A DNA stretch of 64,000 nt from Candidatus Heimdallarchaeum endolithica (GCA_021513715.1 CP084167.1:2880001-2944000), one strand, 5' to 3'. Positions 2,061 to 42,700 are shown, counted from the first letter of the stretch. Program-made: numbers and translations. Notes: generated by a model from the sequence alone, not told the origin.

Positions 2061-2699
2061 CTAACCGTACAACTCTCGTTTAATAGTCTCAAAGATTCCA
2101 TCTATTCTATCGTACATTTCTTCTCCGCCTTTCAAAGCTGAGATTGCTTCCCATCCGTGAAATGACCTTGGATAACGTTCTTTCAAGTGTTCCCAAGCAG
2201 CTTTAAAGTTTTCTCTCAAGTACTCATCTGCTTTTGCTTTGCTAAAATCAAGTAAGTCGATTTTATTCACTACTAAGAAAAAGATGGCTTTTGCTTTTCT
2301 TGCTTTACGCTCAGCTTTGACAATATCATTATCTAGAGTCATAAGAAAATAATTGCTAACTTGAGTTAAAGCATCAATTTGAACTTTAGTATCTTGAGTG
2401 GGGTCAATCATGAAAATTATACCGTTAGTCTTGTAGTCCTGCATTGCTTTCTTCCAATAAGGCCACAAAGACATATCTCCAGGGCAATCTACTGCCATAA
2501 CCTTGTATGTCCTATATTTTTCTAAGCTTAAAGCTGATTTGTATTGTTGACTTTTGAGTTTTATACGTTTAGAGTGCACTTCAATTTGTGTTGTAGGACT
2601 TATATCTTCGATATCTTCTCCCTTGATTCTTTTAATTAGAGTAGTTTTACCTACTCCTGTTGCACCTAAAATTGTGATTGATAATTCACGAGTTAACAT
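2061..2699 (-). CDS. Ras-superfamily small GTPase (Arf/Rab-like, Asgard type)
   Basis: G1 GATGVGKTT, G2 PTT, G3 DCPG, G4 NKID, G5 SAL. Confidence 0.9.
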   Translation of the reverse strand: MLTRELSITILGATGVGKTTLIKRIKGEDIEDISPTTQIEVHSKRIKLKSQQYKSALSLEKYRTYKVMAVDCPGDMSLWPYWKKAMQDYKTNGIIFMIDPTQDTKVQIDALTQVSNYFLMTLDNDIVKAERKARKAKAIFFLVVNKIDLLDFSKAKADEYLRENFKAAWEHLKERYPRSFHGWEAISALKGGEEMYDRIDGIFETIKRELYG

Positions 2700-3044: not shown

Positions 3045-3060
3045 GAGAAAGGTTTATAAG
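3045..3060 (+). promoter_or_regulatory. Probable BRE/TATA promoter of the kor-hdr-mvh-frd operon
   Basis: Purine-rich gagaaagg followed by TTTATAAG, ~56 nt upstream of the first ATG. Confidence 0.5.
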
Positions 3061-3116: not shown

Positions 3117-3449
3117 ATGAATTATACTGTCGATTATGATAAAAAAAAGAAAAAAGCGGAGTGGCCCGCTTTCATAAATATAAGTGAATGGAAACAAGAA
3201 CACCCCGTAATATATTTAATCCCAGAACGTTGCAAAGCTTGTAGTTTCTGCATAAATTACTGCCCTGAACAGATACTTGAATTTTCTTCAGATATCAACC
3301 AAAAGGGTTATCATCTTCCCAAACTTAAAGAGGGTAAGGATTTTTCTAACTGTGCAGAGTGTCATTTTTGCGAATTAATTTGTCCTGAATTCGCTATTTT
3401 TGTGAAGGTTCCGGAAAAACAAGAAGAGGAGGAGAAACAAGATGAGTAA
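3117..3449 (+). CDS. korD: 2-oxoacid:ferredoxin oxidoreductase delta subunit (2x[4Fe-4S])
   Basis: CKACSFCINYCP and CAECHFCELICPEFAI; adjacent to korA. Confidence 0.88.
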   Translation: MNYTVDYDKKKKKAEWPAFINISEWKQEHPVIYLIPERCKACSFCINYCPEQILEFSSDINQKGYHLPKLKEGKDFSNCAECHFCELICPEFAIFVKVPEKQEEEEKQDE

Positions 3450-4614
3450 AACAATTCAGAAAGAAGAAGATCGAACTGTTTTAACTGGTGAATACTTTAC
3501 AACAGGAAACCTTGCTGCTGCAGAAGGAGCTTTGGCTGCTGGATGTAAGTTTTTTGGTGGTTATCCTATTACTCCTAGTTCAGAGATCGCAGAACACATG
3601 TCTTATCGTCTTCCCCAAGTTGGAGGGCATTTCCTTCAATTCGAAGATGAAATTGCTTCTATCGTATCAATTCTTGGAGCAAGTTGGGGAGGATGGAAAT
3701 CTATGACTGCAACTTCTGGGCCAGGTTACTCATTGATGTTGGAAAATATTGGTCTAGGTATAATGACTGAAACTCCTTGTGTTATAATAAATGTGCAACG
3801 AGGAGGACCATCTACTGGTCTACCAACACTAGTAGGTCAGCAAGATATCCAACAGACAAGATGGGGGTCACATGGAGATTATGAAGTAATAGCTTTAGCA
3901 CCAAATAGTGTTCAAGAATGCTTTGATTTAGTAATTGTTGCTTTTAATTATGCTGAAAAATATAGATTACCTGTAACTTTGCTAATGGATGAAACACTTG
4001 GTCATATGAGTGAAAAGTTGATTATACCAAAAAAAGATGATATCAAGATTATTAATAGAAAGAAGCCCAAAGATGATCCTTCCAGTCATCTTCCCTATAA
4101 AGCAGATGAAGATCTAGTACCACCAATGGCTACAGCTGGAGAAGGATATCGTGTTATAACCACAGGATTAACACATGATGAAAGAGGATATCCTGTTTTA
4201 GATGCAGAAACCCAAGAAAAACTTCTGCGAAGATTAATTAATAAAATAAAAAAGAATAAAGATGATATAATTTTACTTGAGGAATATAAACTTAAAGATG
4301 CTGAGCTAATAATTATCTCCTTTGGTATAAGTGCACGTGCTTCGAAAGGAGCAATTGAACTTGCAAGAAAAAAGGGGATAAAGGTTGGTCTTTTAAGACT
4401 TATTACCATCTGGCCATTTGCTGATGAACATATAGAAAAACTTGCAGAAAAAGTTGATAACATCTTGGTTGTTGAAATTAATTCTGGACAAGTTACAAGA
4501 GAGGTTCAGAGAGCTGTAAAGGGTAAAGCTAACGTACATGGAGTGCTTAAGCATGGAGGTACCATTCATACACCAGAAGAAATCTTATCTGAGATAGAGA
4601 GGAGAGTAAAATGA
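3442..4614 (+). CDS. korA: 2-oxoglutarate/2-oxoacid:ferredoxin oxidoreductase alpha subunit
   Basis: GYPITPSSEIAE, EDEIAS, TATSGPG, QRGGPSTGLPT. Confidence 0.92.
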   Translation: MSKTIQKEEDRTVLTGEYFTTGNLAAAEGALAAGCKFFGGYPITPSSEIAEHMSYRLPQVGGHFLQFEDEIASIVSILGASWGGWKSMTATSGPGYSLMLENIGLGIMTETPCVIINVQRGGPSTGLPTLVGQQDIQQTRWGSHGDYEVIALAPNSVQECFDLVIVAFNYAEKYRLPVTLLMDETLGHMSEKLIIPKKDDIKIINRKKPKDDPSSHLPYKADEDLVPPMATAGEGYRVITTGLTHDERGYPVLDAETQEKLLRRLINKIKKNKDDIILLEEYKLKDAELIIISFGISARASKGAIELARKKGIKVGLLRLITIWPFADEHIEKLAEKVDNILVVEINSGQVTREVQRAVKGKANVHGVLKHGGTIHTPEEILSEIERRVK

Positions 4615-5471
4615 CTAGTGAATTATTAAAAGCTGAAGAACATCCTTCAGATGTATTTCTAAGACCCGGTAGAATACCTCATATCTGGTGTCCTGGGTGC
4701 AGTTTAGGTTCAGTAACGAATGTGATTATACAAGCAATAAAACAAAGTGGAATTGATTCTAAAAAGATAGCTATAATTTCTGGTATTGGTTGCACAGGAA
4801 GAGCTGCAGGCTATCTGAATTTTGATTCTTTTCACACAACTCATGGTAGAGCTATACCTTTTGCTATAGGATTAAGCGTAACTGACCCTGAGAGAAAAGT
4901 TATTGTTATTTCAGGAGATGGAGATTTAGCTTCTATAGGAGGTAATCATCTGATTCATGGAGCTAGAAGAAATGCAGACATTACAGTTATTTGTGTAAAT
5001 AACTTTCAATATGGAATGACTGGTGGGCAAGTAGGCCCTACTTCCTACGAGGGACAATTTCAGACTACTGCCCCATATGGAAATGTTGAGCATCCATTTG
5101 ACCTACCAGGTTTAGCTTATTCATGTGGGGCAACTTTTGTAGCAAGGTGGACAGCTCTTGATGTTAGAAGAATGAAAGAAACAATTATTGAAGCGATTCT
5201 ACATAAAGGATTCTCTTTTGTAGAAATTTTGGGCTCATGTCCTACAACTTATGGTAGAAGAAATCAATTAAGAGAAGGTTTAGAAATTTTAGAAAATTTC
5301 AGAAAGAGGACAGTATTGCAACATGGAGCTGACCCAACAAAAACTGAAATCTCCAAAGATGGACCTATAATTGTTGGAAAATTTGTTGAAATAAAAGATA
5401 AATCAACCTTAACAGATAACTTGCTTAAAGTTCAAAGAATAGCAAAAGCAACAAAATCAAGGGGGTTATAA
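4611..5471 (+). CDS. korB: 2-oxoacid:ferredoxin oxidoreductase beta subunit (TPP-binding)
   Basis: WCPGC, SGIGC, HGRA, GDGD...NN TPP motif, YGMTGGQ. Confidence 0.92.
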   Translation: MTSELLKAEEHPSDVFLRPGRIPHIWCPGCSLGSVTNVIIQAIKQSGIDSKKIAIISGIGCTGRAAGYLNFDSFHTTHGRAIPFAIGLSVTDPERKVIVISGDGDLASIGGNHLIHGARRNADITVICVNNFQYGMTGGQVGPTSYEGQFQTTAPYGNVEHPFDLPGLAYSCGATFVARWTALDVRRMKETIIEAILHKGFSFVEILGSCPTTYGRRNQLREGLEILENFRKRTVLQHGADPTKTEISKDGPIIVGKFVEIKDKSTLTDNLLKVQRIAKATKSRGL

Positions 5472-5472
5472 A

Positions 5473-6012
5473 ATGCCAAGAGTAGAAATACGTTTTGCTG
5501 GTTTTGGAGGACAAGGAATCGGTCTTCTAGGAAGATTAATGGGTGAAGCAATTGCTTTGTATATGGAAGAAAAAAATGCTATAATGACTCAGAGCTATGG
5601 ACCTGAAAGTAGAGGAGGAGCCAGTAGTTCTGATGTTGTGATTGATGAAGGAGAAATTGCCTACCCTAAAGCAACTCATTATGATTATTTAGTTGTTATG
5701 TCAGAGGAAGCCTATCATAAATACATCCCGAATTTGAAAGAAGGGGGAACATTATTTGTAGAAGAGAATCTAGTAATCCTCGATGATCATGCTAAAAAAG
5801 CTGGAAAAATCTTGAAAATTCCTGCAACTAAAATAGCTGAAGAAATAGGAAGTAGTTTATATGCAAATATTGCAATGTTGGGTTTTTTCTGTGCAAATAC
5901 TGATATAGTATCTGAAGATGCGCTAAAGAAGGTGATAAGAGAAAAAGTGAAAGCACGTTTTGTAAAGAATAATCTTATTGCTTTCGAAAAGGGGAAAAAC
6001 TATAAGGGATGA
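5473..6012 (+). CDS. korG: 2-oxoacid:ferredoxin oxidoreductase gamma subunit
   Basis: GFGGQG, QSYGPESRGG. Confidence 0.9.
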   Translation: MPRVEIRFAGFGGQGIGLLGRLMGEAIALYMEEKNAIMTQSYGPESRGGASSSDVVIDEGEIAYPKATHYDYLVVMSEEAYHKYIPNLKEGGTLFVEENLVILDDHAKKAGKILKIPATKIAEEIGSSLYANIAMLGFFCANTDIVSEDALKKVIREKVKARFVKNNLIAFEKGKNYKG

Positions 6013-7979
6013 AAAAAATGGATGAGAAAAAGAAAGTTGGAGTATTTGTTTGTCATTGTGGAAGAAATATCGCTCAAACTGTTGATATAGAAAAACTAAT
6101 GGAAAAAGTCAGAGAAAAGTATGATGTTGAGCTTGTAGAAGATAATATGTATATGTGTTCTGATCCAGGACAAAATTTGTTAAAAGAGTCAATTCAAGCA
6201 AAGAATTTAAATCGAGTTATTGTTGCTGCTTGTTCTAGAGATATGCATGAGCCAACATTCAGAAGTGCAGCTCAAGAAGCTGGTTTAAATCCTTATTTAG
6301 TTGAAATTGCTAATATTAGAGAACAAGTTAGTTGGGTTCATGATGACAAAGAAAAAGCAACAGAAAAAGCTTCAAAGATAATAGGTTCAACAATTGAAAA
6401 AGTAATAAGAGATGAACCTTTAGAACCTCTTAAAATACCTGTTGTTCAAAGAGCATTAGTTATTGGAGGAGGAATTGCAGGAATACAAGCTGCTCTTGAT
6501 ATTGCTGATGCAGGATATGAAGTAACTTTGGTTGAAAAATCTCCTACTATTGGAGGACACATGGCACAATTAGCTGAAACATTTCCGACTTTGGATTGTA
6601 GTCAATGTATTTTAACACCAAAAATGGTTGCTGTAAGTCGACATCCAAAAATTAACTTGCTGACAACCAGTGAAGTTGTAAGTGTTGATGGGTATGTTGG
6701 AAACTTTAAAGTGCAAATAAGAAAGAATCCGAGATATGTAGATGTTGATAAATGTAATCTCTGTGATGATTGTACAGCTGTATGTCCTGTAGTGGTTCAT
6801 GATGAATATAATCAAAGTTTATCCCCAAGAAAAGCTATTTATATCCCATTTCCTCAAGCTGTACCTGCATCGTATGTTATTGACGAGGAAACTTGTTTGG
6901 GAATTGATCCTCTGATCTGTTCAAAATGTAAAGATGTCTGTTTAGTTGAAGCAATAAATTTCGATATGCAACCAGAAATAATTGAAGAAGAATTTGGTGC
7001 CATAATTGTTGCCACTGGATATGATACCTATCCAATAGAAAATATAGGTGAGTATGGTTATGGTGCTCATCCAGATATTATTTCAGGACTAGACTTTGAA
7101 AGATTATTATCTGCAAATGGACCAACACAAGGTGTTATAAGAAGACCTTCAGATGGAAAAGTCCCAAAAACTGTAGTGTTTGTTCATTGTGCTGGTTCTA
7201 GAGATCCTGCTAAACATTTACCTTATTGTTCTAAAATATGCTGTATGTACTCTACAAAACATGCTTTGCAGTATAAACATCTTGTTCATGATGGAACTGC
7301 GATTAACTTTTATATTGATGTAAGAACAGCAGGAAAAGATTATGAAGAATTCTATAAACGTGCTGCAGAAGAAGAAAAGGTGATTTATGTAAGAGGAAAG
7401 GTCTCTGAAATAATAGAAGACGGAGATCAGCTTCTAGTAAAAGGTGTGGATACATTATTGGGAGAAGCAGTAGAAGTTCATGCTGATCTAGTTGTTTTAG
7501 CTACAGGATTAGTTCCAAGTAAAGGAACACAAGAAATTTCACATCTTTTGAAATTATCTTGCGATAGTAAAGGATTTCTCAAAGAAGCACATCCAAAATT
7601 AAAACCTGTAGAATCAGCTCTATCTGGTATTTTTATTGCAGGAACTGCTTCTGGTCCAAAAGACATTCCAGAGACAGTTTCTCAAGCTTCTGGGGCAGCA
7701 GCAAAAGCTGCAACAATTCTGGCTTCTGAATTCCTTGAAAGAGAGCCTCAAATCGCACAGGTAGATCCAACAACTTGCGGTCTGTGTCATACTTGTATTA
7801 ATGTTTGTCCCTATGGAGCGATCTATTTAGATGAAGGTGTGAGAAGAATAACTGTTCGAGAAGCACTATGTGAAGGATGTGGAAGTTGTGCAGCTGCTTG
7901 TCCTTCTGGTAGCATTGAATTAAAAAACTCTACTTCTGAAGGAATTAGAGCGCAGATTAAAGCATTGTTACAAGGGTGA
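6009..7979 (+). CDS. hdrA: Heterodisulfide reductase subunit A (flavin-based electron bifurcation)
   Basis: VFVCHCG, NIREQ, GGGIAG, KSPTIGGHMAQLxxTFPTLDC, YCSKICCMY, GPKDIP, ferredoxin motifs. Confidence 0.95.
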   Translation: MKKMDEKKKVGVFVCHCGRNIAQTVDIEKLMEKVREKYDVELVEDNMYMCSDPGQNLLKESIQAKNLNRVIVAACSRDMHEPTFRSAAQEAGLNPYLVEIANIREQVSWVHDDKEKATEKASKIIGSTIEKVIRDEPLEPLKIPVVQRALVIGGGIAGIQAALDIADAGYEVTLVEKSPTIGGHMAQLAETFPTLDCSQCILTPKMVAVSRHPKINLLTTSEVVSVDGYVGNFKVQIRKNPRYVDVDKCNLCDDCTAVCPVVVHDEYNQSLSPRKAIYIPFPQAVPASYVIDEETCLGIDPLICSKCKDVCLVEAINFDMQPEIIEEEFGAIIVATGYDTYPIENIGEYGYGAHPDIISGLDFERLLSANGPTQGVIRRPSDGKVPKTVVFVHCAGSRDPAKHLPYCSKICCMYSTKHALQYKHLVHDGTAINFYIDVRTAGKDYEEFYKRAAEEEKVIYVRGKVSEIIEDGDQLLVKGVDTLLGEAVEVHADLVVLATGLVPSKGTQEISHLLKLSCDSKGFLKEAHPKLKPVESALSGIFIAGTASGPKDIPETVSQASGAAAKAATILASEFLEREPQIAQVDPTTCGLCHTCINVCPYGAIYLDEGVRRITVREALCEGCGSCAAACPSGSIELKNSTSEGIRAQIKALLQG

Positions 7980-8449
7980 GAATTATGAGTACATCAAAAC
8001 AAGAACAAGAATCAGGTATAAAAAACCCAAACCCGAAGATAGTCCTTTTCTTATGCCGTTGGTGTTCTGGAAAAGGAGCAGATTTAGCAGGAACATCAAG
8101 ATTAAACTATCCCCCTAATGTTCTGCCAATAATGGTCAATTGTACATCGAGAATTGATCCTAGATTTATAGTAGAAGCTTTTCTAGATGGAGCTGATGGG
8201 GTTCTAGTTACAGGTTGTCACTTTGGTGATTGCCATTACAAGACTGGCAATTACAAAGCATATAGACGTCTCTCACTAGTTGCAAAATTATTGAAACAAG
8301 TCGGAGTTAATCCCAAAAGATTTAGATTGACTTGGATATCAGCAACAGAAGCGACAAAATTTGTGAAAGTGACTACTGAAATGGTAGAAGATTTGAAGAA
8401 ACTTCCTCCTTACTGGAGTAATGAAAATGGAGGTGATAGTGATGAATAA
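7976..8449 (+). CDS. mvhD: Methyl-viologen-reducing hydrogenase subunit D ([2Fe-2S])
   Basis: FLCRWC, GADLAG, GADGVLVTGCHFGDCHY. Confidence 0.93.
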   Translation: MRIMSTSKQEQESGIKNPNPKIVLFLCRWCSGKGADLAGTSRLNYPPNVLPIMVNCTSRIDPRFIVEAFLDGADGVLVTGCHFGDCHYKTGNYKAYRRLSLVAKLLKQVGVNPKRFRLTWISATEATKFVKVTTEMVEDLKKLPPYWSNENGGDSDE

Positions 8450-9440
8450 ATTAAAGGTCGCAGTAGCTCTTGGAGCAACTTGCGCTGGTTGTGACGTAGC
8501 TATCCTAGATTTAAATGAAAAAATACTAGATGTAATAGAAATAGTAGATTTTGTTTTTTGGCCTACAGCAATGGACTTTAAACTGGATGATCTAAAAGCA
8601 CTAAAAGATGGTGAAGTTGATGTAGGTTTGTACCATGGGGCTATAGGGACAGAAGAAGATGAAGAAATAGCTAAAATATTAAGAAAGAAATCAAAAATAG
8701 TTGTAGCTTTTGGAGCTTGCGCTAATTTTGGTGGGATACCAAGTTTAACAAATATGCCTTATGAATCAAAGATGTTTGATGTGGTTTATAAAGAAAGTCC
8801 ATCTACTTCAAACCCAGAAGGGACTCTACCACAAAAAGAAACAGAGATAGAAGGAACAAAGTTGACTTTACCAGGAATTAGAAAAAGAGCAGATTCTTTA
8901 AACAGTGTTATTGATGTCGATTATTATGTCCCAGGTTGTCCTCCTATGGTTCCTTTGATTGAACAAGTAGTTGATGTCTTAAGAGTGTTTGTTGAAAAAG
9001 GCACTTTACCTCCTAAAGGAGCAGTTATTGCTGGGCAAGATACCTTGTGTAAAGAGTGTGGACGAACTAAACCAGAAACTATTTCTTACAAAGAATTTGT
9101 GTCTCCACAAGAAGTAAAAGAAATTGATCCTGACCTTTGTCTACTCTCGCAAGGAATTCTCTGTTTAGGGCCAGCAACACGTTCTGGTTGTGGAGCCTTA
9201 TGTACAAAAATGAATGTTGGTTGTAGAGGATGTTTAGGACCAACAGACAAAGTCGATGATCATGGTCTGAAAATGATATCTGCTCTAACTTCACTTTTGG
9301 AAGTTGAACATGAAGAAGAATATACAGAGGAAGATTTCGATAAATTATTAGAAAAAATACCTGACCCATTAGGGACATTTTATCGATTTACTTATGGAGT
9401 ATCCATGATCTCTAAATTACATCCAGATAAGGAGGAATAA
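8442..9440 (+). CDS. mvhG: Group 3c [NiFe]-hydrogenase small subunit
   Basis: CAGC, GAC, PGCPP, CLLxQGILCLGPATRSGC..CxGC; GGAGGTGA RBS before ATG 8442. Confidence 0.92.
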   Translation: MNKLKVAVALGATCAGCDVAILDLNEKILDVIEIVDFVFWPTAMDFKLDDLKALKDGEVDVGLYHGAIGTEEDEEIAKILRKKSKIVVAFGACANFGGIPSLTNMPYESKMFDVVYKESPSTSNPEGTLPQKETEIEGTKLTLPGIRKRADSLNSVIDVDYYVPGCPPMVPLIEQVVDVLRVFVEKGTLPPKGAVIAGQDTLCKECGRTKPETISYKEFVSPQEVKEIDPDLCLLSQGILCLGPATRSGCGALCTKMNVGCRGCLGPTDKVDDHGLKMISALTSLLEVEHEEEYTEEDFDKLLEKIPDPLGTFYRFTYGVSMISKLHPDKEE

Positions 9441-9442
9441 AA

Positions 9443-10930
9443 ATGAATCAAAAATTAAATCCAAATATAGTGACTATTGAACCAGTCACAAGATTAGAAG
9501 GATTAGCAAAAATAACTGTACTTCTTAATGATGAAGGAAATGTAAAAGATGCTTTTTACCAAGTAGTAGAGCTCAGAGGGTTTGAACGCTTTGTTCAAGG
9601 AAGACCAATTGAAGAAGTTTTGAGAATTACGCCAAGAATCTGTGGTGTGTGTCCTATTCCTCATCATCTTGCACCTGCAATAGCTGCAGATAGAATATAT
9701 GGTGTTGACCCTCCAAAAACTGCAAAACTATTAAGAGAAATGATGGCTTTAGGCCATATTGTTCATAGTCACATTTTACATTTCTATGCTTTTGCTCTTC
9801 CTGATTTTGTATTAGGGGAAAAGAAGGAAGCAGGTACGCATAATATAATTGGTTTAGCTAAGACATTTCCAGATGTTGCCAAAGCAGCTATTAAAGCAAG
9901 AGGAGATGCTCAAAAAATTCAAGCGATGATTGGTGCAAAAGCTACTCATCCTGTTACAGTCATCCCAGGAGGAATAAGTAAGGGAGTAACAAAGGAAGAT
10001 ACAGAAAAAATGTTAGAAATGAGTAATAATATCGTAGAATTCGGTAAATTGGGTCTTAAAGTCTTTGAAGATTTAGTAGTTAAAAATAAGGATCAGATGG
10101 CTCTTATTAATAGTGATGCATATAAAATGGATACCTATTATATGTCAATTGTAGGGCCAAAAAATACGCTTGATTTCTATAATAGTCAAACAGTCAGGGT
10201 AATTGACAGTAAAGGAAAAGAGTTTGCAAAATTTGAGTCTGATAAGTATTTAGACTACATAGATGAACATGTAGAACCTTGGTCATATCTAAAGTTCCCC
10301 TACCTTAAACAGATAGGTTGGAAAGGACTTGTGGATGGACCAAATAGTGGTGTATTTAGGGTTAATGCCTTAGCTCGATTGAATGTTGTAGATAAGATAG
10401 AAACCCCTCTAGCTCAAGAAGCAATGGAAAATATGTACGATGTTCTTGGCGGAAAGCCTGCTCATCATACTCTCGGTTTTAATTGGGCTAGACTAGTTGA
10501 AATCCTTTATTGTGGTGAAAAAATGGTTGAATTAGCTCAGGATCCTGACTTCTATGGTCCAAAATTCAGGGAACAGTTAAGTAAAGACATGATTACTGGT
10601 GAAGGAGTAGGGGCAATAGAAGCACCAAGAGGAACTTTGTATCACCACTATAAGACTGATAAAGAAGGAAAAGTAACCAAAGCTAATATCATAGTAGCTA
10701 CAACAAATAATAATGCTGCAATATGCTTGAGTGTCAAAAAAGCTGCTCAAGAAATGATCAAAAAAGGTCAATATAATGATGATGGACTAAATAAAATTGA
10801 GATGGCTTTTAGAGCCTATGACCCTTGTTTAGCTTGTGCAACTCACGCTATGGTTGGACAGATGCCACTAAAAGTGGAAATATATGATTCTAAGAAAAAT
10901 AAGATAAGAGAGTTGACACGTAAACTATGA
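9443..10930 (+). CDS. mvhA: Group 3c [NiFe]-hydrogenase large subunit
   Basis: PVTRLEG, L1 RICGVC, EAPRGTLYH, L2 RAYDPCLACATH with C-terminal extension. Confidence 0.95.
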   Translation: MNQKLNPNIVTIEPVTRLEGLAKITVLLNDEGNVKDAFYQVVELRGFERFVQGRPIEEVLRITPRICGVCPIPHHLAPAIAADRIYGVDPPKTAKLLREMMALGHIVHSHILHFYAFALPDFVLGEKKEAGTHNIIGLAKTFPDVAKAAIKARGDAQKIQAMIGAKATHPVTVIPGGISKGVTKEDTEKMLEMSNNIVEFGKLGLKVFEDLVVKNKDQMALINSDAYKMDTYYMSIVGPKNTLDFYNSQTVRVIDSKGKEFAKFESDKYLDYIDEHVEPWSYLKFPYLKQIGWKGLVDGPNSGVFRVNALARLNVVDKIETPLAQEAMENMYDVLGGKPAHHTLGFNWARLVEILYCGEKMVELAQDPDFYGPKFREQLSKDMITGEGVGAIEAPRGTLYHHYKTDKEGKVTKANIIVATTNNNAAICLSVKKAAQEMIKKGQYNDDGLNKIEMAFRAYDPCLACATHAMVGQMPLKVEIYDSKKNKIRELTRKL

Positions 10931-11433
10931 AAATAGCGATTATCGGCCTAGGAAACCCTATTGTGGGGGATGATGCTGTAGGAATAAGAGTCTTAGATTA
11001 TATAAAAGAAAACAAGATTCTTCCTTACTTTGTAGACATTATGGTCGATGTAAGCCTTTCTGGGATAGGTTTAGTTGAATTATTCAGAGGATATGATAAA
11101 GTAATAATAATAGACTCAATGCAATCTAATCAATTTGAGCCTGGGACAGTTTTAAGACTCAACCCAGACCAATTTGTAAGTGCGCTACATGTTTCTGATT
11201 ATCATAATATGGATTTCTTTACTGCTTACGAATTTGGAAAAGAAATTTATGATGATCTACCATCAAACGAACAAATTGTTATCCTCGGAATTGAAATTAA
11301 TTATATCACTGTATTTAGCGAACAGCTATCTCCAGAAATAAAGTCAAAGTTTAATGAAATAGTAAACGATGTTTATCAGTTTATTGAAAACGAAATAAAT
11401 CAAGAAAAGGAGATTATACGCAATGTCCTTTGA
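10927..11433 (+). CDS. Hydrogenase maturation protease
   Basis: GLGNPIVGDDAVG motif; directly after the large subunit. Confidence 0.9.
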   Translation: MKIAIIGLGNPIVGDDAVGIRVLDYIKENKILPYFVDIMVDVSLSGIGLVELFRGYDKVIIIDSMQSNQFEPGTVLRLNPDQFVSALHVSDYHNMDFFTAYEFGKEIYDDLPSNEQIVILGIEINYITVFSEQLSPEIKSKFNEIVNDVYQFIENEINQEKEIIRNVL

Positions 11434-11836
11434 GTATATAAAAATAGGAAAAGAAGAAAAAGAATTCATAAGTAAAATAGAAGATATCAGCGGACAGAAT
11501 CTATATGCATGTTATCAATGTGGAAAATGTACCGCTGGATGTTCTTTTAGTAATCAAATGGATCTTACAGTAAACCAAGTTATTCATAGATTACAACTTG
11601 GACAAAAAGAAAAAGTGCTGAGTGCAAAGAGTCCTTGGGTTTGTGCAAGTTGTCTGACTTGTACAGTAAGATGCCCACGAGATATTGACGTAGCTGCGAT
11701 AATGGAGTCAGTAAGAGAATACATTCTACGTTATGAACCAGAGAGGATAGAAAGAATGAAAGTTACAGAAGAAAAAGCTAAAAAGCTTCCTAATATAGCC
11801 CTTGTAGGTAGTTTTAGGAAAAATACTGAATTATAA
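11423..11836 (+). CDS. hdrC: Heterodisulfide reductase subunit C
   Basis: CYQCGKCTAGC and WxCASCLTCTVRCPR. Confidence 0.9.
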   Translation: MSFEYIKIGKEEKEFISKIEDISGQNLYACYQCGKCTAGCSFSNQMDLTVNQVIHRLQLGQKEKVLSAKSPWVCASCLTCTVRCPRDIDVAAIMESVREYILRYEPERIERMKVTEEKAKKLPNIALVGSFRKNTEL

Positions 11837-11848
11837 TAGGTGAATTAA

Positions 11849-12739
11849 ATGAAATATTCATATTTTCCAGGATGCAATCTCAAAACAAATGCAAAGGAAT
11901 ATGAACATACAGCTGTAGAAGTTTCAAAAATATTGGACGCTGAGCTCGTAGAAATGCCAGTGTTTAATTGTTGTGGGACAGTTCATAGTATGGTTTCAGA
12001 TAATACTATGAGAAGAGTGGCTCCTGTACGTATTCTTTCAAGATCTGAAGAACATCAGAAAGAGTTAGAAGATACAAAAAATACCGTTGTAACTCTTTGC
12101 TCGATGTGTAGTTCAACACTAAAAGTAGTGAATGAAGAAGTAAAAGAAGACGAAGAAATGCTACAAAAAATAAATTGGCAACTTGAAAGAGATAATCTAA
12201 AATATTCTGGCCATTCAGAAGTCAAACATTATTTAGAAATACTTAGAGATGAAGTTGGTTTTGAAGAAATCATTAAAAAGGTTAAAAAACAACTTAAAGG
12301 AATGAAAATTGCTTCCTATTATGGTTGTATGTTGTTGCACCCAGACAAAGCTAAAATAGATGATAGTGAAACACCTACAGTAATGGAAAGCCTTACTCTT
12401 GCACTTGGAGGAGAAGTAGTTGATTGGCCTTATTTTAAAACTTGTTGCGGTTCTTATCATGTTGTAGATAAAGAAGATATCGTAAACAATCAAGTTTTGA
12501 AAATAACGGAGGGTGCAAAAAAAAGAGGAGCTAATGCTATAATTACTGCTTGTCCTTTGTGCGCTTATAATCTAGATAGTCAACAAGTATTTTTACAGAA
12601 AAAAGGAGTAATTAAAGAAACCATACCTGTCTTCTACTTTACTCAACTTATGGCAATAGCTCTAGGGATAAAATTGAAAAATTTTGAAGATCATCATGTA
12701 GATCCTAAACCTTTACTAAAAAGTCTAGGATTAATTTAA
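11849..12739 (+). CDS. hdrB: Heterodisulfide reductase subunit B (two CCG domains)
   Basis: YFPGC, CCG, CSMC, YYGC, CCG, CPLC. Confidence 0.9.
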   Translation: MKYSYFPGCNLKTNAKEYEHTAVEVSKILDAELVEMPVFNCCGTVHSMVSDNTMRRVAPVRILSRSEEHQKELEDTKNTVVTLCSMCSSTLKVVNEEVKEDEEMLQKINWQLERDNLKYSGHSEVKHYLEILRDEVGFEEIIKKVKKQLKGMKIASYYGCMLLHPDKAKIDDSETPTVMESLTLALGGEVVDWPYFKTCCGSYHVVDKEDIVNNQVLKITEGAKKRGANAIITACPLCAYNLDSQQVFLQKKGVIKETIPVFYFTQLMAIALGIKLKNFEDHHVDPKPLLKSLGLI

Positions 12740-12758
12740 AAAAAAAGAGGAATAAAAA

Positions 12759-13481
12759 ATGGCAAAAGCAATATCAATGAGAGAAAAAAAAGAAGAACTT
12801 GACACAGTAACCATATATATTATGGGTCAAGGATACAAAGTTCCTTCTTCTTTAACCATAATGAAAGCAATGGAATATGCTGGTTTTAAACTTAAAAGAG
12901 GAGTCGGGTGTCGTGCAGGTTTTTGTGGAGCATGTGCAACCGTTTATAGAAAATTAGGCGATTACAAAATATATGCTAACTTGGCATGTCAAACTAAAGT
13001 TGAAGACGGGATGTATCTCACACAATTACCTTTTGTTCCTGCAAATAAAGCAGAATACAATCTTGATGAGATTAAACCTTCAGCTTCAACAATGCTCCGT
13101 TTCTATCCAGAAATAGCAAGATGCTTAAGTTGTAATGCTTGTTCAAGAGTGTGCCCACAAGATATACAAGTAATGGATTATGTTCAATACAGTTTGCAAG
13201 GGCAAATAGATAAAGCAGCTGAACTAGCTTTTGATTGTATTCAATGCGGTCTTTGCGCAATTCGTTGCCCAGCAGAGATTCCTCAATATCATGTGGCAAC
13301 ATTGGCACGAAGATTACATGGTAGATATCATATGATTGCTCCTGACACTCTAGAACAAAGAGTAAAGGAAATAGAAGAAGGAAAATACGAAAAAGGATTT
13401 GAAGAGTTGATGTCTCTATCTGAAGAAGAATTAAAGAAACGATACGTTGCAAGAGACTTTATTGATCAGAAAAAGGCGTGA
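12759..13481 (+). CDS. Fumarate reductase/succinate dehydrogenase-like Fe-S subunit
   Basis: GCRAGFCGAC...LAC [2Fe-2S] plus two CxxCxxCxxxCP motifs. Confidence 0.85.
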   Translation: MAKAISMREKKEELDTVTIYIMGQGYKVPSSLTIMKAMEYAGFKLKRGVGCRAGFCGACATVYRKLGDYKIYANLACQTKVEDGMYLTQLPFVPANKAEYNLDEIKPSASTMLRFYPEIARCLSCNACSRVCPQDIQVMDYVQYSLQGQIDKAAELAFDCIQCGLCAIRCPAEIPQYHVATLARRLHGRYHMIAPDTLEQRVKEIEEGKYEKGFEELMSLSEEELKKRYVARDFIDQKKA

Positions 13482-15145
13482 GTAAAATGATTAGAGGATA
13501 TCCAGAAAGTATGAGAAAAAGTATTGACAAAGTCAATAAAACAAGAGATAAGAGAATCGACCAAATTATGAAAGATTTGACTCTTGAAGAGCGTGAGAAA
13601 GTATTGCACGAGTTTCACCCAGACTATAATCCGGCATACAAAAGAGATATTGGTTGGGGACAAAATAAGGGAGATAATGTTCCTAATGAAGTAGCAGATA
13701 TACTGGAATCATATCCAATTTATGATCCAGATGAAATCGATTTAAGCCAAATAGACTATGATGTTGGCGTGTTGATTATTGGTGCAGGAGGAGCTGGAAC
13801 AGCAGCAGCATTATGGACTGTTTATTCTGGAGTGCCAAAAGATAAGATTCTGCTGGCAACCAAACTTAGGTTAGGAGATTGTAATACTGTTATGGCGCAA
13901 GGAGGAATCCAAGCAGCCGATAGACCAGAAGATTCACCTTTGATTCATTATTTGGATGCTATGGGTGGAGGACACTTCAAAAACAAACCTGAGTTAGTAA
14001 AAGCACTTGTTTCTGATGGACCAAAAATAATCAAGTGGCATAAAGAACTAGGTTTAATGTATGATCAAAACGAAGATGGAAGTTTTGTAGAAAATGCTGG
14101 TGGAGGAACATCCAGAAACAGAATGCACTGCGCTAAAGACTATACAGGAATGGAAATTTTCAGAAATTTAAAAGATGAAGTAATTAACAATGAGATACCT
14201 TTGTTAGAATTTTCTCCTGCTGTAGAGCTATTAAAAGATGAAAATGGAAGAGTAGCAGGAGCGTTATTGTATAATCTAGAAACGAAAGAATATTCTGTCG
14301 TGAGAGCAAAAACAACCATTTTAACCACAGGTGGATTCGGAAGGTTGCACATCGCAGGGTTTGCGACAACAAATCATTATGGAGCAACAGGAGACGGAAT
14401 AGTTATGGCTTACAGAGCTGGAGCTAAACTAAGAGACTTAGATTCAACACAGTTCCACCCAACAGGAGCAGCTTTTCCAGAGCAAATAGTAGGATTACTG
14501 ATTACTGAAAAATTAAGAAGCTTAGGAGCACAAGTTTTAGGAAAGAATGGTGAACAAATATGCTATCCATTAGAACCAAGAGATGTTGAAGCTGCTTCAA
14601 TAATAAAAGTAACAAAAAGTACAGATAATTATGTTGAAACTCCTACGGGAATGAGAGGAGTTTGGCTAGACAGCCCATTGATTGAAGAAATTAGAGGAAA
14701 AGGTACTATCGATAAGAATCTTGCTGCTATGAAAAGGATGTTCTCAAGATTCGATATTGATATGACTGAAGATCCTATACTAGTTCATCCAACTCTACAT
14801 TATCAGAACGGAGGAGTAGAACTTGATGAGCATGGTTATACTTCTGTACCTGGATTGCTAGGTGCAGGTGAGATAAGTGGTGGTGTTCATGGAAAGAATC
14901 GTCTCATGGGTAATTCTCTTCTTGAGGTCAACGTTTTCGGCAGAAGAGCAGGTATATCTGCTGCTAAAGAATATAAACGAGGTAAAAAACCAGGTAAGCT
15001 TACTCTGTCTCATGTAAAGAAAGCAATTGAGCAAATAGATACTCTAAATCTCAAGAAAAAACGTTTTTCACCTGTCATTCTTCCAGAATATCGTAGTGAA
15101 GCAGTTAGAGATCGTTTAATTCAACTATTTGAATCTAGTCTCTAG
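13478..15145 (+). CDS. Fumarate reductase/succinate dehydrogenase flavoprotein-like subunit (TfrA/FrdA family)
   Basis: GAGGAG, NTVMAQGG, QFHPT, LITExLR, PRD, HYQNGG, HGKNRLMGNSL. Confidence 0.88.
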   Translation: MSKMIRGYPESMRKSIDKVNKTRDKRIDQIMKDLTLEEREKVLHEFHPDYNPAYKRDIGWGQNKGDNVPNEVADILESYPIYDPDEIDLSQIDYDVGVLIIGAGGAGTAAALWTVYSGVPKDKILLATKLRLGDCNTVMAQGGIQAADRPEDSPLIHYLDAMGGGHFKNKPELVKALVSDGPKIIKWHKELGLMYDQNEDGSFVENAGGGTSRNRMHCAKDYTGMEIFRNLKDEVINNEIPLLEFSPAVELLKDENGRVAGALLYNLETKEYSVVRAKTTILTTGGFGRLHIAGFATTNHYGATGDGIVMAYRAGAKLRDLDSTQFHPTGAAFPEQIVGLLITEKLRSLGAQVLGKNGEQICYPLEPRDVEAASIIKVTKSTDNYVETPTGMRGVWLDSPLIEEIRGKGTIDKNLAAMKRMFSRFDIDMTEDPILVHPTLHYQNGGVELDEHGYTSVPGLLGAGEISGGVHGKNRLMGNSLLEVNVFGRRAGISAAKEYKRGKKPGKLTLSHVKKAIEQIDTLNLKKKRFSPVILPEYRSEAVRDRLIQLFESSL

Positions 15146-15827
15146 TAACTATTTTCTTTTTTTTCATCTCTCTTTCTATTTCTTTTATTGAAAATATTTT
15201 TCCATGAGAAGGATATAGCCACTCTACTCCTTCATCTATTAATTTTTTCCAACTTTCGTATATCTTTTCTTTTTCATTTGCAACTATAGGAAAATAGCTT
15301 TTTCCTGAAAGCAATGGAAACTTCATTACAATATCTCCTATAAAAGCATGTTTTTGTTTGAAAATTAAAGAAATTGAACCATCAGTATGTCCTGGTGTAT
15401 GGATTATTTTAGCGTCAAATCCATAATCACTAAGTGATAATTCATTACTTACTTTGATTTCTACAGAAAAGGGAGCAATCTCACGCTTTATCGAAGGAAA
15501 TATCATTTTCAGTAATTTATTCGTTAAAACAGCTTCTGGTGTATTCCCTTTTTCAACCATATTAGCTTCTGTTTCATGCATTAAAACCTCTGCTCCTGTA
15601 ATTTCTTTCATCTCTTTCACTGATCCAATATGGTCAATGTGTCCGTGAGTAATAACAATTAGTTTAATGTTTTTTGGCTCGATAGAGAGTTTTCGTAGAA
15701 AATTAATTATTTTTTTATGACTTTTTAACATCCCTGTATCAACTAAGATGTAATTGCTATTCTCTTTTATGAGATAACTATTAACATAACCTAATTTTAT
15801 TCTGTGAATAGAAATCATAATTATCAA
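15135..15827 (-). CDS. Metallo-beta-lactamase-fold hydrolase
   Basis: THGHIDHIG, TPGHT, GD, PSHG. Confidence 0.9.
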   Translation of the reverse strand: MIIMISIHRIKLGYVNSYLIKENSNYILVDTGMLKSHKKIINFLRKLSIEPKNIKLIVITHGHIDHIGSVKEMKEITGAEVLMHETEANMVEKGNTPEAVLTNKLLKMIFPSIKREIAPFSVEIKVSNELSLSDYGFDAKIIHTPGHTDGSISLIFKQKHAFIGDIVMKFPLLSGKSYFPIVANEKEKIYESWKKLIDEGVEWLYPSHGKIFSIKEIEREMKKKKIVTRD

Positions 15828-16136: not shown

Positions 16137-17522
<1,386 letters not shown>

Positions 17523-42348: not shown

Positions 42349-42700
42349 TTAGTTTTTTACGTAAAAAAGTATCGTATGTTCGATTTGCATTTTACATGTC
42401 GGGCAATCTGTAACAGCAACATCAATATCTTCCTTCTTTACTGCATTAAAAAGCCAATGCCCAATTTTCATTGAAGTTTCATAATTTTCTTTTTTCATAC
42501 CCCAACTCCCAGAAACACCACAACATGTATTAGTCCCCTTTTCAACTTCAAGTTCTGGTATTTTATTGAGTAGATCAAAGGAAACAGTTGTAATATCTCT
42601 TTGTGCTTTCAAGTGACATGACGTATGATAGAGTACTTTTGTTTTTTCTGGATTAAACTCTACATTTGCTTTGTTTTCTTTTAATAATTTATCAACAAAT
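42349..42700 (-). pseudogene. C-terminal CCG-domain fragment of an Fe-S oxidoreductase (GlpC/GlcF-like)
   Basis: Frame extends upstream of the called ORF: VLYHTSCHL...CCGVSGSWG...TDCPTCKMQI; no proper N-terminus. Confidence 0.75.

Follow-up and report, generated by a model that had tools for sequence, protein, structure and literature searches.

In the archaeon Candidatus Heimdallarchaeum endolithica, a stretch of 64,000 nucleotides (CP084167.1:2880001-2944000, assembly GCA_021513715.1; hereafter the window, with positions counted from its first letter) carries a run of genes at 3117-15145 that joins a 2-oxoacid:ferredoxin oxidoreductase (Kor), a hydrogenase-linked heterodisulfide reductase (Mvh-Hdr), and a fumarate-reductase-like pair made of an iron-sulfur (FeS) subunit and a flavoprotein. 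On the basis of gene content, motifs and context, we lean towards a model in which electrons from H2 are bifurcated to fumarate and to ferredoxin, with Kor making 2-oxoglutarate. The comparison with known enzymes suggests that fumarate takes the place of the disulfide used by methanogens. A bacterial version of this system, fed by NADH through Flx, was proposed in 2019; the new element is the H2-fed (Mvh), archaeal variant. What HdrABC reduces, together with Mvh or Flx, in organisms that lack coenzyme M (CoM) and coenzyme B (CoB) is a long-standing question. The operon offers a concrete and testable answer for one lineage, in which the sole Hdr is tied to the sole fumarate reductase and to a 2-oxoglutarate synthase. 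Its genes and predicted signals are as follows.

3053..3059, + strand: candidate archaeal TATA box, TTTATAA, by resemblance to the consensus only, 58 nt before the korD ATG.
3117..3449, + strand: korD, delta (2x[4Fe-4S] ferredoxin-like) subunit of the 2-oxoacid:ferredoxin oxidoreductase; Pfam Fer4_7, with 8 Cys.
3442..4614, + strand: korA, alpha subunit; Pfam POR_N and PFOR_II, NCBIfam PRK08659 at 571 bits, above the cut-off of 411.
4611..5471, + strand: korB, beta (thiamine-pyrophosphate-binding) subunit; Pfam TPP_enzyme_C, best PDB match 8ys5_C (beta subunit of a 2-oxoglutarate:ferredoxin oxidoreductase).
5473..6012, + strand: korG, gamma subunit; Pfam POR, best NCBIfam match PRK08537 at 189 bits, below the cut-off of 235.
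6009..7979, + strand: hdrA, electron-bifurcating flavoprotein; 704 bits and full length against the methanogen HdrA structures 8rvu and 5odc, single copy.
7976..8449, + strand: mvhD, [2Fe-2S] adaptor between the donor module and HdrA; Pfam FlpD (E 9e-50), single copy.
8421..9440, + strand: mvhG, [NiFe]-hydrogenase small subunit; Pfam Oxidored_q6, best NCBIfam match VhuG at 183 bits.
9443..10930, + strand: mvhA, [NiFe]-hydrogenase large subunit of the Mvh/Vhu type; best NCBIfam match VhuA at 390 bits.
10927..11433, + strand: hydrogenase maturation endopeptidase; Pfam HycI, TIGR00072 at 93 bits, above the cut-off of 47.
11423..11836, + strand: hdrC, 2x[4Fe-4S] subunit; best NCBIfam match TIGR03290 (E 3e-18), below the cut-off.
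11849..12739, + strand: hdrB, with two CCG domains (two non-cubane [4Fe-4S] sites), of a divergent subfamily; full-length match to methanogen HdrB structures at 117 bits.
12759..13481, + strand: FrdB/SdhB-like FeS subunit of 240 aa without a CCG domain; a [2Fe-2S] and two complete [4Fe-4S] motifs.
13478..15145, + strand: fumarate-reductase-like flavoprotein with predicted non-covalent flavin adenine dinucleotide (FAD); Pfam FAD_binding_2, best NCBIfam match TfrA at 309 bits, cut-off 718.
15152..15164, + strand: oligo-T tract TTTTCTTTTTTTT, a candidate archaeal terminator read from the sequence, directly after the flavoprotein stop codon.

An earlier note on this DNA had described 13 co-directional genes with overlaps or gaps under 20 bp, in the order korDABG-hdrA-mvhDGA-protease-hdrCB-FeS-flavoprotein, and both statements hold. 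The interval contains exactly 13 open reading frames, all on the + strand, and their 12 junctions measure, in order, -8, -4, +1, -4, -4, -29, +2, -4, -11, +12, +19 and -4 bp (range -29 to +19 bp). Pfam and NCBIfam together give korD-korA-korB-korG-hdrA-mvhD-mvhG-mvhA-maturation protease-hdrC-hdrB-FeS subunit-flavoprotein. The 13 genes are thus a real, tightly packed predicted operon. Chance can hardly account for the arrangement, as dozens of unrelated lineages have this gene set around the flavoprotein. An AT-rich region of 417 bp lies upstream of korD. At the other end, the oligo-T tract also sits within the 3' end of a convergent gene for a metallo-beta-lactamase-fold hydrolase (15135-15827, minus strand), which overlaps the 3' end of the flavoprotein gene by 11 bp. 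A scan for sigma-70 promoters and hairpin terminators returned 47 sites against 53 expected and is uninformative for an archaeal host. The glutamate dehydrogenase gene gdhA (16161-17522), which the earlier note had placed about 1 kb downstream, does begin 1015 bp beyond the cluster; its link to the cluster is not conserved, as gdhA lies near the module in only 1 of 57 loci. Because the convergent minus-strand gene and a 330-bp AT-rich region intervene, gdhA forms a separate transcription unit, and it was rejected as a member of the operon.

The four-subunit architecture of a 2-oxoacid:ferredoxin oxidoreductase is complete, with the delta, alpha, beta and gamma subunits all encoded. The best PDB matches of KorA are 1yd7 and chain 8ys5_A of a 2-oxoglutarate:ferredoxin oxidoreductase (OGOR). 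KorD finds OGOR_delta as its best NCBIfam match (E 4e-14, below the cut-off), and KorB finds the OGOR beta subunit (244 bits, cut-off 364), with PRK09628 among the best specific models. On the donor side, MvhA keeps its L1 motif RICGVC and its L2 motif DPCLACATH intact, followed by a cleavable tail of 27 aa, which fits the presence of the protease gene directly after mvhA. Neither MvhG nor MvhA reaches the NCBIfam equivalog cut-offs of VhuG and VhuA.

HdrA is preserved over its whole length: residues 4-654 align with 8-653 of 8rvu_a at 704 bits, and the domain set is complete, comprising the N-terminal domain, the TrxR-like FAD domain, and the inserted and C-terminal ferredoxin domains. Downstream of it the cofactor chain is intact, since HdrC, HdrB and the FeS subunit have each kept their Cys motifs. 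All 8 Cys of HdrC are kept in at least 49 of 50 loci, and the 10 Cys that make up the two CCG motifs of HdrB (C9, C41, C42, C84 and C87; C160, C199, C200, C235 and C238) are kept in 50 of 50. HdrB scores about equally on the NCBIfam models SdhE (148 bits) and HdrB (145 bits), in both cases below the cut-off, and its CCG domains reach 34-40 bits; the highest-scoring one in a canonical HdrB reaches 79.5 bits. All three subunits fall short of their equivalog cut-offs, with 822 against 1100 bits for HdrA, 145 against 345 for HdrB, and 66 against 160 for HdrC. In Methanofastidiosum, a methanogen with the cluster, a canonical HdrB is encoded separately; the cluster copy is an extra paralog there, and the idea that it is the methanogenic enzyme was rejected.

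Two more CCG-domain loci were seen in the genome besides hdrB. One encodes an HdrD/GlcF-like protein (G000:C1:1234147-1236739 on the + strand, or L088:2148-4740) with a Fer4 and two CCG domains, scoring 191 bits on the C-terminal part of TfrB. It adjoins a GlcD-like FAD oxidase gene, with which it probably makes up a 2-hydroxyacid dehydrogenase pair. The other, at 42382-42636 of the window on the minus strand, is a frame of 121 aa with a single CCG domain (40.5 bits).

In the FeS subunit, one [2Fe-2S] motif of the plant type is joined by two complete CxxCxxCxxxCP motifs, and the 12 Cys involved are kept in at least 77 of 79 sequences. Its N-terminal domain matches TfrB/dhsB, on the TfrB model only over positions 19-85 of 488. 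In an AlphaFold2 model (predicted local distance difference test score, pLDDT, of 79), its best matches are the FrdB chains 1kf6_B and 1qlb_B, over the full length although with low TM-scores (0.26-0.29). Pfam and NCBIfam agree with the earlier note that this subunit is devoid of the CCG domains of methanogen TfrB. The same note had stated that the operon encodes no membrane anchor of the SdhC/D or FrdC type, and this too is borne out, as no convincing transmembrane segment occurs in any of the 13 proteins. No Sdh_cyt match was found in the genome or in 7 other cluster-carrying genomes, the FrdC and FrdD Pfam families not having been searched. A membrane-bound complex II was rejected on these grounds.

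The flavoprotein, which is 97% identical to that of Candidatus Heimdallarchaeum aukensis, matches the TfrA model at positions 7-426 of 546 only and has no PF02910 (Succ_DH_flav_C) domain by Pfam. About 80 residues follow its last catalytic Arg, compared with 166-208 in relatives, and a conserved stretch of about 95 aa extends its N-terminus. The protein reaches none of the NCBIfam equivalog cut-offs. An AlphaFold2 model built from 12 sequences (pLDDT 67, a moderate value) confirms the FrdA/SdhA fold; it does not confirm a role for the N-terminal extension. The residues of the dicarboxylate site of fumarate reductase and succinate dehydrogenase (H327, T343, E344, R368, H441 and R475) are invariant throughout the flavoprotein family and align with those of TfrA, Sdh and Frd. 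The position of the flavinylated His of Sdh and Frd is taken by Asn136, an Asn that is likewise invariant in the family, and the Glu specific to L-aspartate oxidase (NadB) is replaced by Gly in the flavoprotein and all family members. In a maximum-likelihood tree, the family and a second tier of sequences at 40-45% identity form a clade of their own (support 100/100). Fumarate and succinate are probably the substrate couple, an assignment based on active-site residues and gene context only. L-aspartate oxidase was rejected for want of the NadB-specific Glu and because the flavoprotein always comes with an FrdB-like partner. In the Asgard genomes G178, G223, G328, G142 and G169, the match to the flavoprotein contains one in-frame TAA, which may be the gene's own stop codon, a sequencing error, or recoding.

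In the proposed mechanism, the 13 genes would encode one soluble, cytoplasmic redox unit. MvhAG would oxidize H2, and the electrons would pass via MvhD to the bifurcating FAD of HdrA. On the high-potential branch they would then travel from HdrC to HdrB, to the FrdB-like FeS subunit, and to the non-covalent FAD of the flavoprotein, where fumarate would be reduced to succinate. The low-potential branch from HdrA would reduce ferredoxin. SucCD would convert succinate into succinyl-CoA, which KorDABG would carboxylate to 2-oxoglutarate with the reduced ferredoxin. The stoichiometry of such a scheme closes: 2 H2 would provide two electrons for one fumarate and two low-potential electrons for one succinyl-CoA. 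In functional terms, HdrB would supply the CCG half of a thiol:fumarate reductase, now detached and shared with Hdr, and the FeS subunit and the flavoprotein would supply the remainder. A diffusible thiol of the CoM/CoB type would then not be needed. It is from gene content, motifs, conservation and context that we infer complex formation, fumarate as the substrate, direct transfer and the reductive direction. The earlier note had already suggested H2-driven bifurcation with fumarate as the acceptor and Kor on the ferredoxin side, and all of the comparative evidence gathered here (the sole Hdr and Frd, synteny, catalytic residues and pathway gaps) supports this suggestion. Functional coupling of Hdr, Frd and Kor appears very likely from this evidence, while the chances for a thiol-free, direct wiring seem evenly balanced.

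The energetics were computed for 2 H2 plus ferredoxin plus an acceptor from textbook potentials, taken as +33 mV for fumarate and -140 mV for the disulfide. With fumarate, the reaction yields -24 kJ/mol at 10 Pa H2, -12.5 at 1 Pa, and about 0 at 0.1 Pa. With a disulfide at 10 Pa H2, the computed value is +9.5 kJ/mol. If fumarate is indeed the acceptor, H2-driven ferredoxin reduction would be permitted at H2 pressures that are impossible with a disulfide at -140 mV. The variant fed by NADH comes to -33 kJ/mol by the same calculation, making it effectively irreversible.

The association is not confined to Heimdallarchaeum. Members of the flavoprotein family, at 57-80% identity, occur in more than 580 species representatives, and the carriers include Asgard archaea, Thermoplasmata, Theionarchaea, Methanofastidiosum, Bathyarchaeia, Culexarchaeum, Acetothermia/Bipolaricaulota, WOR-3, Aerophobetes, Aminicenantes, Thermotogae, Chloroflexi, Spirochaetota, and others. 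The proteins of the window were mapped by tblastn onto 80 fetched loci, and synteny was counted in the 57 of them with at least 7 kb upstream. The FeS gene accompanies the flavoprotein gene in all 57, hdrA in 49, hdrB in 49, hdrC in 48, mvhD in 44, korAB in 31, and mvhGA in 25; every part of the cluster is present in 13. Co-directional and adjacent hdrABC and FeS-flavoprotein genes are found in 45 of the 57 as well as in the own locus, and hdrB lies directly upstream of the FeS gene in 50 loci. The synteny search that the earlier note had called for thus reveals an hdr-mvh-frd-kor association conserved across archaeal and bacterial phyla, with interchangeable donors. Gene order varies, with kor placed upstream, downstream, or between hdrA and hdrCB. 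One natural FeS-flavoprotein fusion exists (P0123), and so does one FlxA-FeS fusion (P0271), although the latter, seen on one contig only, might be an artefact of gene calling. In the Heimdall and Thor loci L010 and L011, two hdrA genes are present, about 75% and 65% identical to that of the window, the second lying between mvhA and the protease gene.

The electron donor is exchangeable as well. In loci without mvhGA, an FlxABC-type trio follows the MvhD/FlxD gene, as confirmed in L002, L020, L022 and L056. This Flx-like trio consists of an NAD-binding flavoprotein, a Fer4_22 protein, and a third FeS protein that is FrhB-like in L020 and L022; L002, which belongs to another Heimdall genome, carries it in place of mvhGA. 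In a locus from Thermoplasmata (L014:1805-5122, + strand), a 1105-aa protein joins HdrA to a GltD/NfnB-like NAD(P)H module (Fer4_20 plus Pyr_redox_2). By sequence, there are therefore three kinds of predicted donor (MvhAG, FlxABC and a GltD-like fusion) around a constant core of HdrABC, FeS subunit and flavoprotein, usually with Kor. The parts are equally similar to bacterial and to non-Asgard archaeal counterparts, with identities of 57 vs 57% for KorA, 55 vs 56% for HdrA, and 60 vs 61% for the flavoprotein. For this reason, the module appears to move between domains as a unit and to be horizontally mobile. Its distribution within the phylum sample is patchy, the flavoprotein family occurring in 58 of 301 genomes: in 25 of the 28 of the taxonomic family to which the window belongs, and in 0 of 68 and 4 of 76 of two large families.

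The genome of Ca. H. endolithica is a single contig of 3.33 Mb, and copy numbers were determined on it by tblastn. Genes for hdrA, hdrB, hdrC, mvhD, the FeS subunit and the flavoprotein are each present in one copy. The genome also holds two more loci resembling [NiFe]-hydrogenases, as well as several additional 2-oxoacid oxidoreductases. The earlier note had presumed a non-methanogen and had proposed looking for mcr and CoM/CoB synthesis. This presumption agrees with the genome, in which mcrA (MCR_alpha) and ComA have no match, the CoB synthesis genes not having been searched. DsrC was also not found there. Among 30 other cluster-carrying genomes, mcrA is absent in 29 and a full-length citrate synthase is found in 6.

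Central metabolism in the same genome has several gaps. There is no Citrate_synt domain, which means neither citrate synthase nor ATP-citrate lyase, and no member of the Iso_dh family, hence no isocitrate or isopropylmalate dehydrogenase; the absence of the latter suggests leucine auxotrophy. Searches for a malate dehydrogenase of the LDH/MDH type, a malic enzyme, and methylmalonyl-CoA mutase found none in the genome, nor was the mutase found in three other Heimdall genomes. SucCD is encoded elsewhere, above equivalog cut-offs, along with a two-subunit class I fumarase and a candidate malate dehydrogenase of the Ldh_2 type. With citrate synthase and isocitrate dehydrogenase missing, and the malate dehydrogenase candidate, fumarase and SucCD present, the only way found to make 2-oxoglutarate de novo is through reductive carboxylation by Kor. 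In methanogens without citrate synthase, the set of SucCD, fumarase and malate dehydrogenase constitutes an incomplete reductive branch leading to 2-oxoglutarate. By analogy, the predicted Hdr-linked enzyme stands where Tfr does in that branch. A full reductive tricarboxylic acid (rTCA) cycle was rejected for this organism, as it has no Citrate_synt domain. Propionate fermentation, under which Imachi 2020 listed an Asgard SdhA, was also rejected here, in the absence of methylmalonyl-CoA mutase.

Two side observations touch on the same pathways. A fusion of PurB and PurM (adenylosuccinate lyase and aminoimidazole ribonucleotide synthetase) of 776 aa, at G000:C1:1642170-1644500 on the minus strand (L087:671-3001), is the sole Lyase_1 protein of the genome and releases fumarate. 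Partial Citrate_synt matches occur in frames of 600-730 aa in the cluster-carrying genomes G002, G003, G004, G010, G012 and G017, two of them Heimdall and one Promethearchaeota. If these frames are ATP-citrate-lyase- or citryl-CoA-lyase-like, the module would be linked to the rTCA cycle in those genomes.

Several points weigh against the reading of the operon as an H2-driven fumarate- and ferredoxin-reducing unit. Both CCG motifs of HdrB are complete, and the same motifs perform disulfide chemistry in methanogens, where the CCG sites of HdrB bind and cleave a disulfide. The clade of the flavoprotein stands apart from the one that holds NadB, SdhA/FrdA and bona fide TfrA (P0189), and the protein misses the TfrA equivalog cut-off (309 vs 718 bits). 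The Kor subunits fall short of the OGOR-specific NCBIfam cut-offs, although OGOR models and PDB chains (PRK09628, 8ys5) match them best. In 8 of the 57 loci there is no hdrA within the flank, and a search for an HdrB-FeS fusion of the cluster's family found none. Finally, the computed reaction reverses below about 0.1 Pa H2.

This last point leads to the question of direction. Run backwards, the unit would be a confurcating H2 producer in the breakdown of glutamate or other amino acids: Kor would oxidize 2-oxoglutarate, SucCD would gain ATP, succinate would be oxidized to fumarate, and HdrA would merge the electrons to form 2 H2. The stoichiometry closes equally well, the system is near equilibrium at 0.1 Pa H2, and gdhA is adjacent. 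The GdhA protein itself matches the NADP-specific, E. coli-type equivalog (746 bits, cut-off 536), a type that is usually assimilatory. No malic enzyme to drain malate was found in the genome, whose two further [NiFe]-hydrogenase-like loci could evolve H2 instead. Studies of FrdA His44 variants and of soluble fumarate reductases indicate that a non-covalent FAD disfavours succinate oxidation, and a non-covalent FAD is what the invariant Asn at the covalent-His position predicts. In the orthologous NADH-fed variants the reverse reaction would be about 33 kJ/mol uphill, and the cultured carrier P. thermosuccinogenes is described as excreting succinate (PMC7282089). The opposite view has its own literature: the Asgard MvhADG-HdrABC has been read as confurcating, within a lifestyle of syntrophic amino-acid degradation with H2 evolution, which also counts against our reading (Imachi et al., PMC7015854), and KOR, SucCD and TfrA are drawn oxidatively in the Culexarchaeia paper (PMC9723716). 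Because of the invariant non-covalent FAD, the one-way thermodynamics of the NADH variant, and the succinate-excreting cultured carrier, the reductive direction is favoured and seems fairly probable, whereas operation of the whole unit in reverse is rather unlikely.

The other alternatives concern the wiring and the substrate. As in methanogens, Mvh-HdrABC might reduce a low-molecular-weight or protein disulfide, with a diffusible thiol then driving fumarate reduction. The retention of both CCG motifs in 50 of 50 loci would suit such a thiol loop, and a DsrC-like protein was one of the options put forward by Rubin-Blum et al. (PMC6315080). However, an FeS subunit without a CCG domain has no thiol-oxidizing site, so that re-oxidation would again need HdrB and the carrier becomes redundant; neither ComA, DsrC nor mcrA was found in the genome, and the only methanogen that carries the module has a canonical HdrB from which the cluster's divergent paralog is distinct. 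A thiol loop therefore looks improbable. It is quite improbable that the flavoprotein-FeS pair acts on another substrate, such as L-aspartate in the manner of NadB, or some other C4 or enoate compound. The pair's flavoprotein does belong to a clade outside TfrA, Sdh, Frd and NadB and fails every equivalog cut-off; it also has the conserved extension and lacks the C-terminal domain, and NadB has the same catalytic residues and an Asn at the covalent-His position. Against this, the NadB-specific Glu is Gly in all family members, and the flavoprotein is always paired with an FrdB-like partner and sometimes fused to one (P0123), whereas NadB works without an FeS partner. Fumarate also fits best with the neighbourhood of Kor, an enzyme whose substrate or product lies one step away from succinate, and a fumarase is reported within the operon of P. 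thermosuccinogenes (as outlined in PMC7282089). Finally, Kor, Mvh-Hdr and Frd could be independent enzymes, co-located only for the co-regulation of anaerobic redox metabolism. The varying position of kor among lineages (upstream, downstream, or between hdrA and hdrCB) and the expression pattern of tfrAB, which differs from the rest of the cluster in Endoriftia (PMC11636981), would be in line with this. It is made highly improbable by the adjacency of hdrB and the FeS gene in 50 loci, by the occurrence of the sole Hdr and the sole Frd of the genome side by side, by the spread of the whole set across domains, and by the FlxA-FeS fusion (P0271).

Whether Asgard Mvh-Hdr consumes or makes H2 feeds into models of the archaeal host of eukaryotes. 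A more far-reaching and tentative proposal is that the non-cubane clusters of HdrB act as a direct relay to a docked fumarate reductase, and that the "heterodisulfide reductase" of hundreds of non-methanogens may be no disulfide reductase at all. The same proposal would make a supercomplex of the type H2 (or NAD(P)H):fumarate plus ferredoxin, working at the low H2 of sediments, the sole function of Mvh-Hdr in Heimdall-group Asgard archaea. These archaea would then be H2 consumers at the Mvh-Hdr step, or succinate-oxidizing H2 producers should the reaction be reversed, which bears on hydrogen-based models of eukaryote origin. Were the function of the module demonstrated biochemically, many "heterodisulfide reductases" and "succinate dehydrogenases" of uncultured anaerobes would have to be re-annotated. 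A single demonstration would have so large an effect because the module is present in more than 580 species, crosses domains, and takes three kinds of donor.

A few neighbours of the operon can be mentioned for their own sake. Directly upstream, on the opposite strand, lies the gene of a small GTPase (2061-2699, minus strand). By Pfam, this protein comes closest to the Arf family (E 7e-11), the kind of eukaryote-like feature that is typical of Asgard archaea. Further upstream, at 109-1156 on the + strand, a Sir2-family deacetylase gene shares 8 bp with the beginning of an acylphosphatase gene.

The closest published relatives of the Heimdallarchaeum operon are found in tubeworm symbionts and in Thioflavicoccus mobilis, where korABCD, tfrAB and flxABCD-hdrABC are interspersed, and where bifurcation was proposed to feed fumarate reduction and 2-oxoglutarate synthesis (Rubin-Blum 2019, PMC6315080, Supplementary Note 3). 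In Endoriftia the cluster is co-expressed except for tfrAB (Mitchell 2024, PMC11636981). These clusters share with ours Kor, HdrABC, and a soluble Tfr-like FeS-flavoprotein pair, co-directional and interspersed. The published symbiont order, with kor between hdrA and hdrBC, is also that of the loci L020, L032, L043 and L078, a likeness judged by gene order only. The differences lie in the donor, which is FlxABCD (NADH) in the symbionts and the Mvh [NiFe]-hydrogenase (H2) in Heimdallarchaeum; in the host, here an Asgard archaeon; and in the pathway, the published cluster being an rTCA gene cluster and Heimdallarchaeum, without a Citrate_synt domain, having at most a reductive branch. The sister Heimdall loci L002-L006 bring the two closer, as Flx-like genes replace mvhGA in them (open reading frames were scanned in L002 only). 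A second relative is the "succinate operon" of P. thermosuccinogenes, in which Flx-Hdr is described as accompanied by a fumarase and a novel fumarate reductase (Koendjbiharie and van Kranenburg 2019 preprint, cited in PMC7282089), and in which a bifurcating Hdr complex was proposed to couple fumarate reductase to ferredoxin reduction (PMC7282089). Going by that published description, the bacterial module differs from ours by its NADH/Flx donor and its built-in fumarase, no kor is reported in it, and it serves as a fermentative electron sink rather than for 2-oxoglutarate synthesis. Papers on WOR-3, Cloacimonadota and Culexarchaeia annotate parts of the cluster separately. Our literature search turned up no description of the H2/Mvh variant, of its presence in Asgard archaea, or of the breadth and donor modularity of the module, and no biochemical test of any variant.

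Among characterized enzymes, the methanogen MvhADG-HdrABC complex (PDB 5ODC, 8RVU and 9SFI) is matched over the full length by HdrA and HdrB, and HdrC, MvhD, MvhG, and an MvhA with intact [NiFe] motifs are all present. In contrast to that complex, neither mcrA nor ComA was found, the CCG domains are divergent, and the FeS-flavoprotein pair follows hdrB. Classical quinol:fumarate and succinate:quinone reductases (types A-D) have an anchor, a covalent 8-alpha-histidyl FAD and a [3Fe-4S] cluster; the Heimdallarchaeum operon has none of these, its third motif being a full CxxCxxCxxxCP. With a second full [4Fe-4S] motif in place of the classical [3Fe-4S], the FeS subunit resembles type E enzymes. 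The type E succinate:quinone reductase and the methylmenaquinol:fumarate reductase of Campylobacter and Wolinella (SdhABE) include a CCG-domain, HdrB-like subunit, and the cluster HdrB scores 148 bits on SdhE (cut-off 500). Unlike SdhABE, the predicted unit shows no sign of quinone or membrane association, its FAD would be non-covalent, and it is linked to HdrA, HdrC and a hydrogenase. In methanogens, the role of TfrAB is in the reductive branch to 2-oxoglutarate, as is proposed here for the Hdr-linked enzyme. TfrAB of Methanothermobacter (Heim et al. 1998, cited in PMC6315080) is also soluble and anchorless, and TfrA is the best-scoring named family for our flavoprotein. The differences are that the flavoprotein lies in a separate clade, lacks Succ_DH_flav_C and has an N-terminal extension, that the FeS subunit has no CCG domain, and that the donors CoM-SH and CoB-SH appear to be unavailable in the Heimdallarchaeum genome. 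TfrB is a natural fusion of an N-terminal half like the FeS subunit and a C-terminal half like HdrB, and in Heimdallarchaeum these two halves are encoded by separate, adjacent genes.

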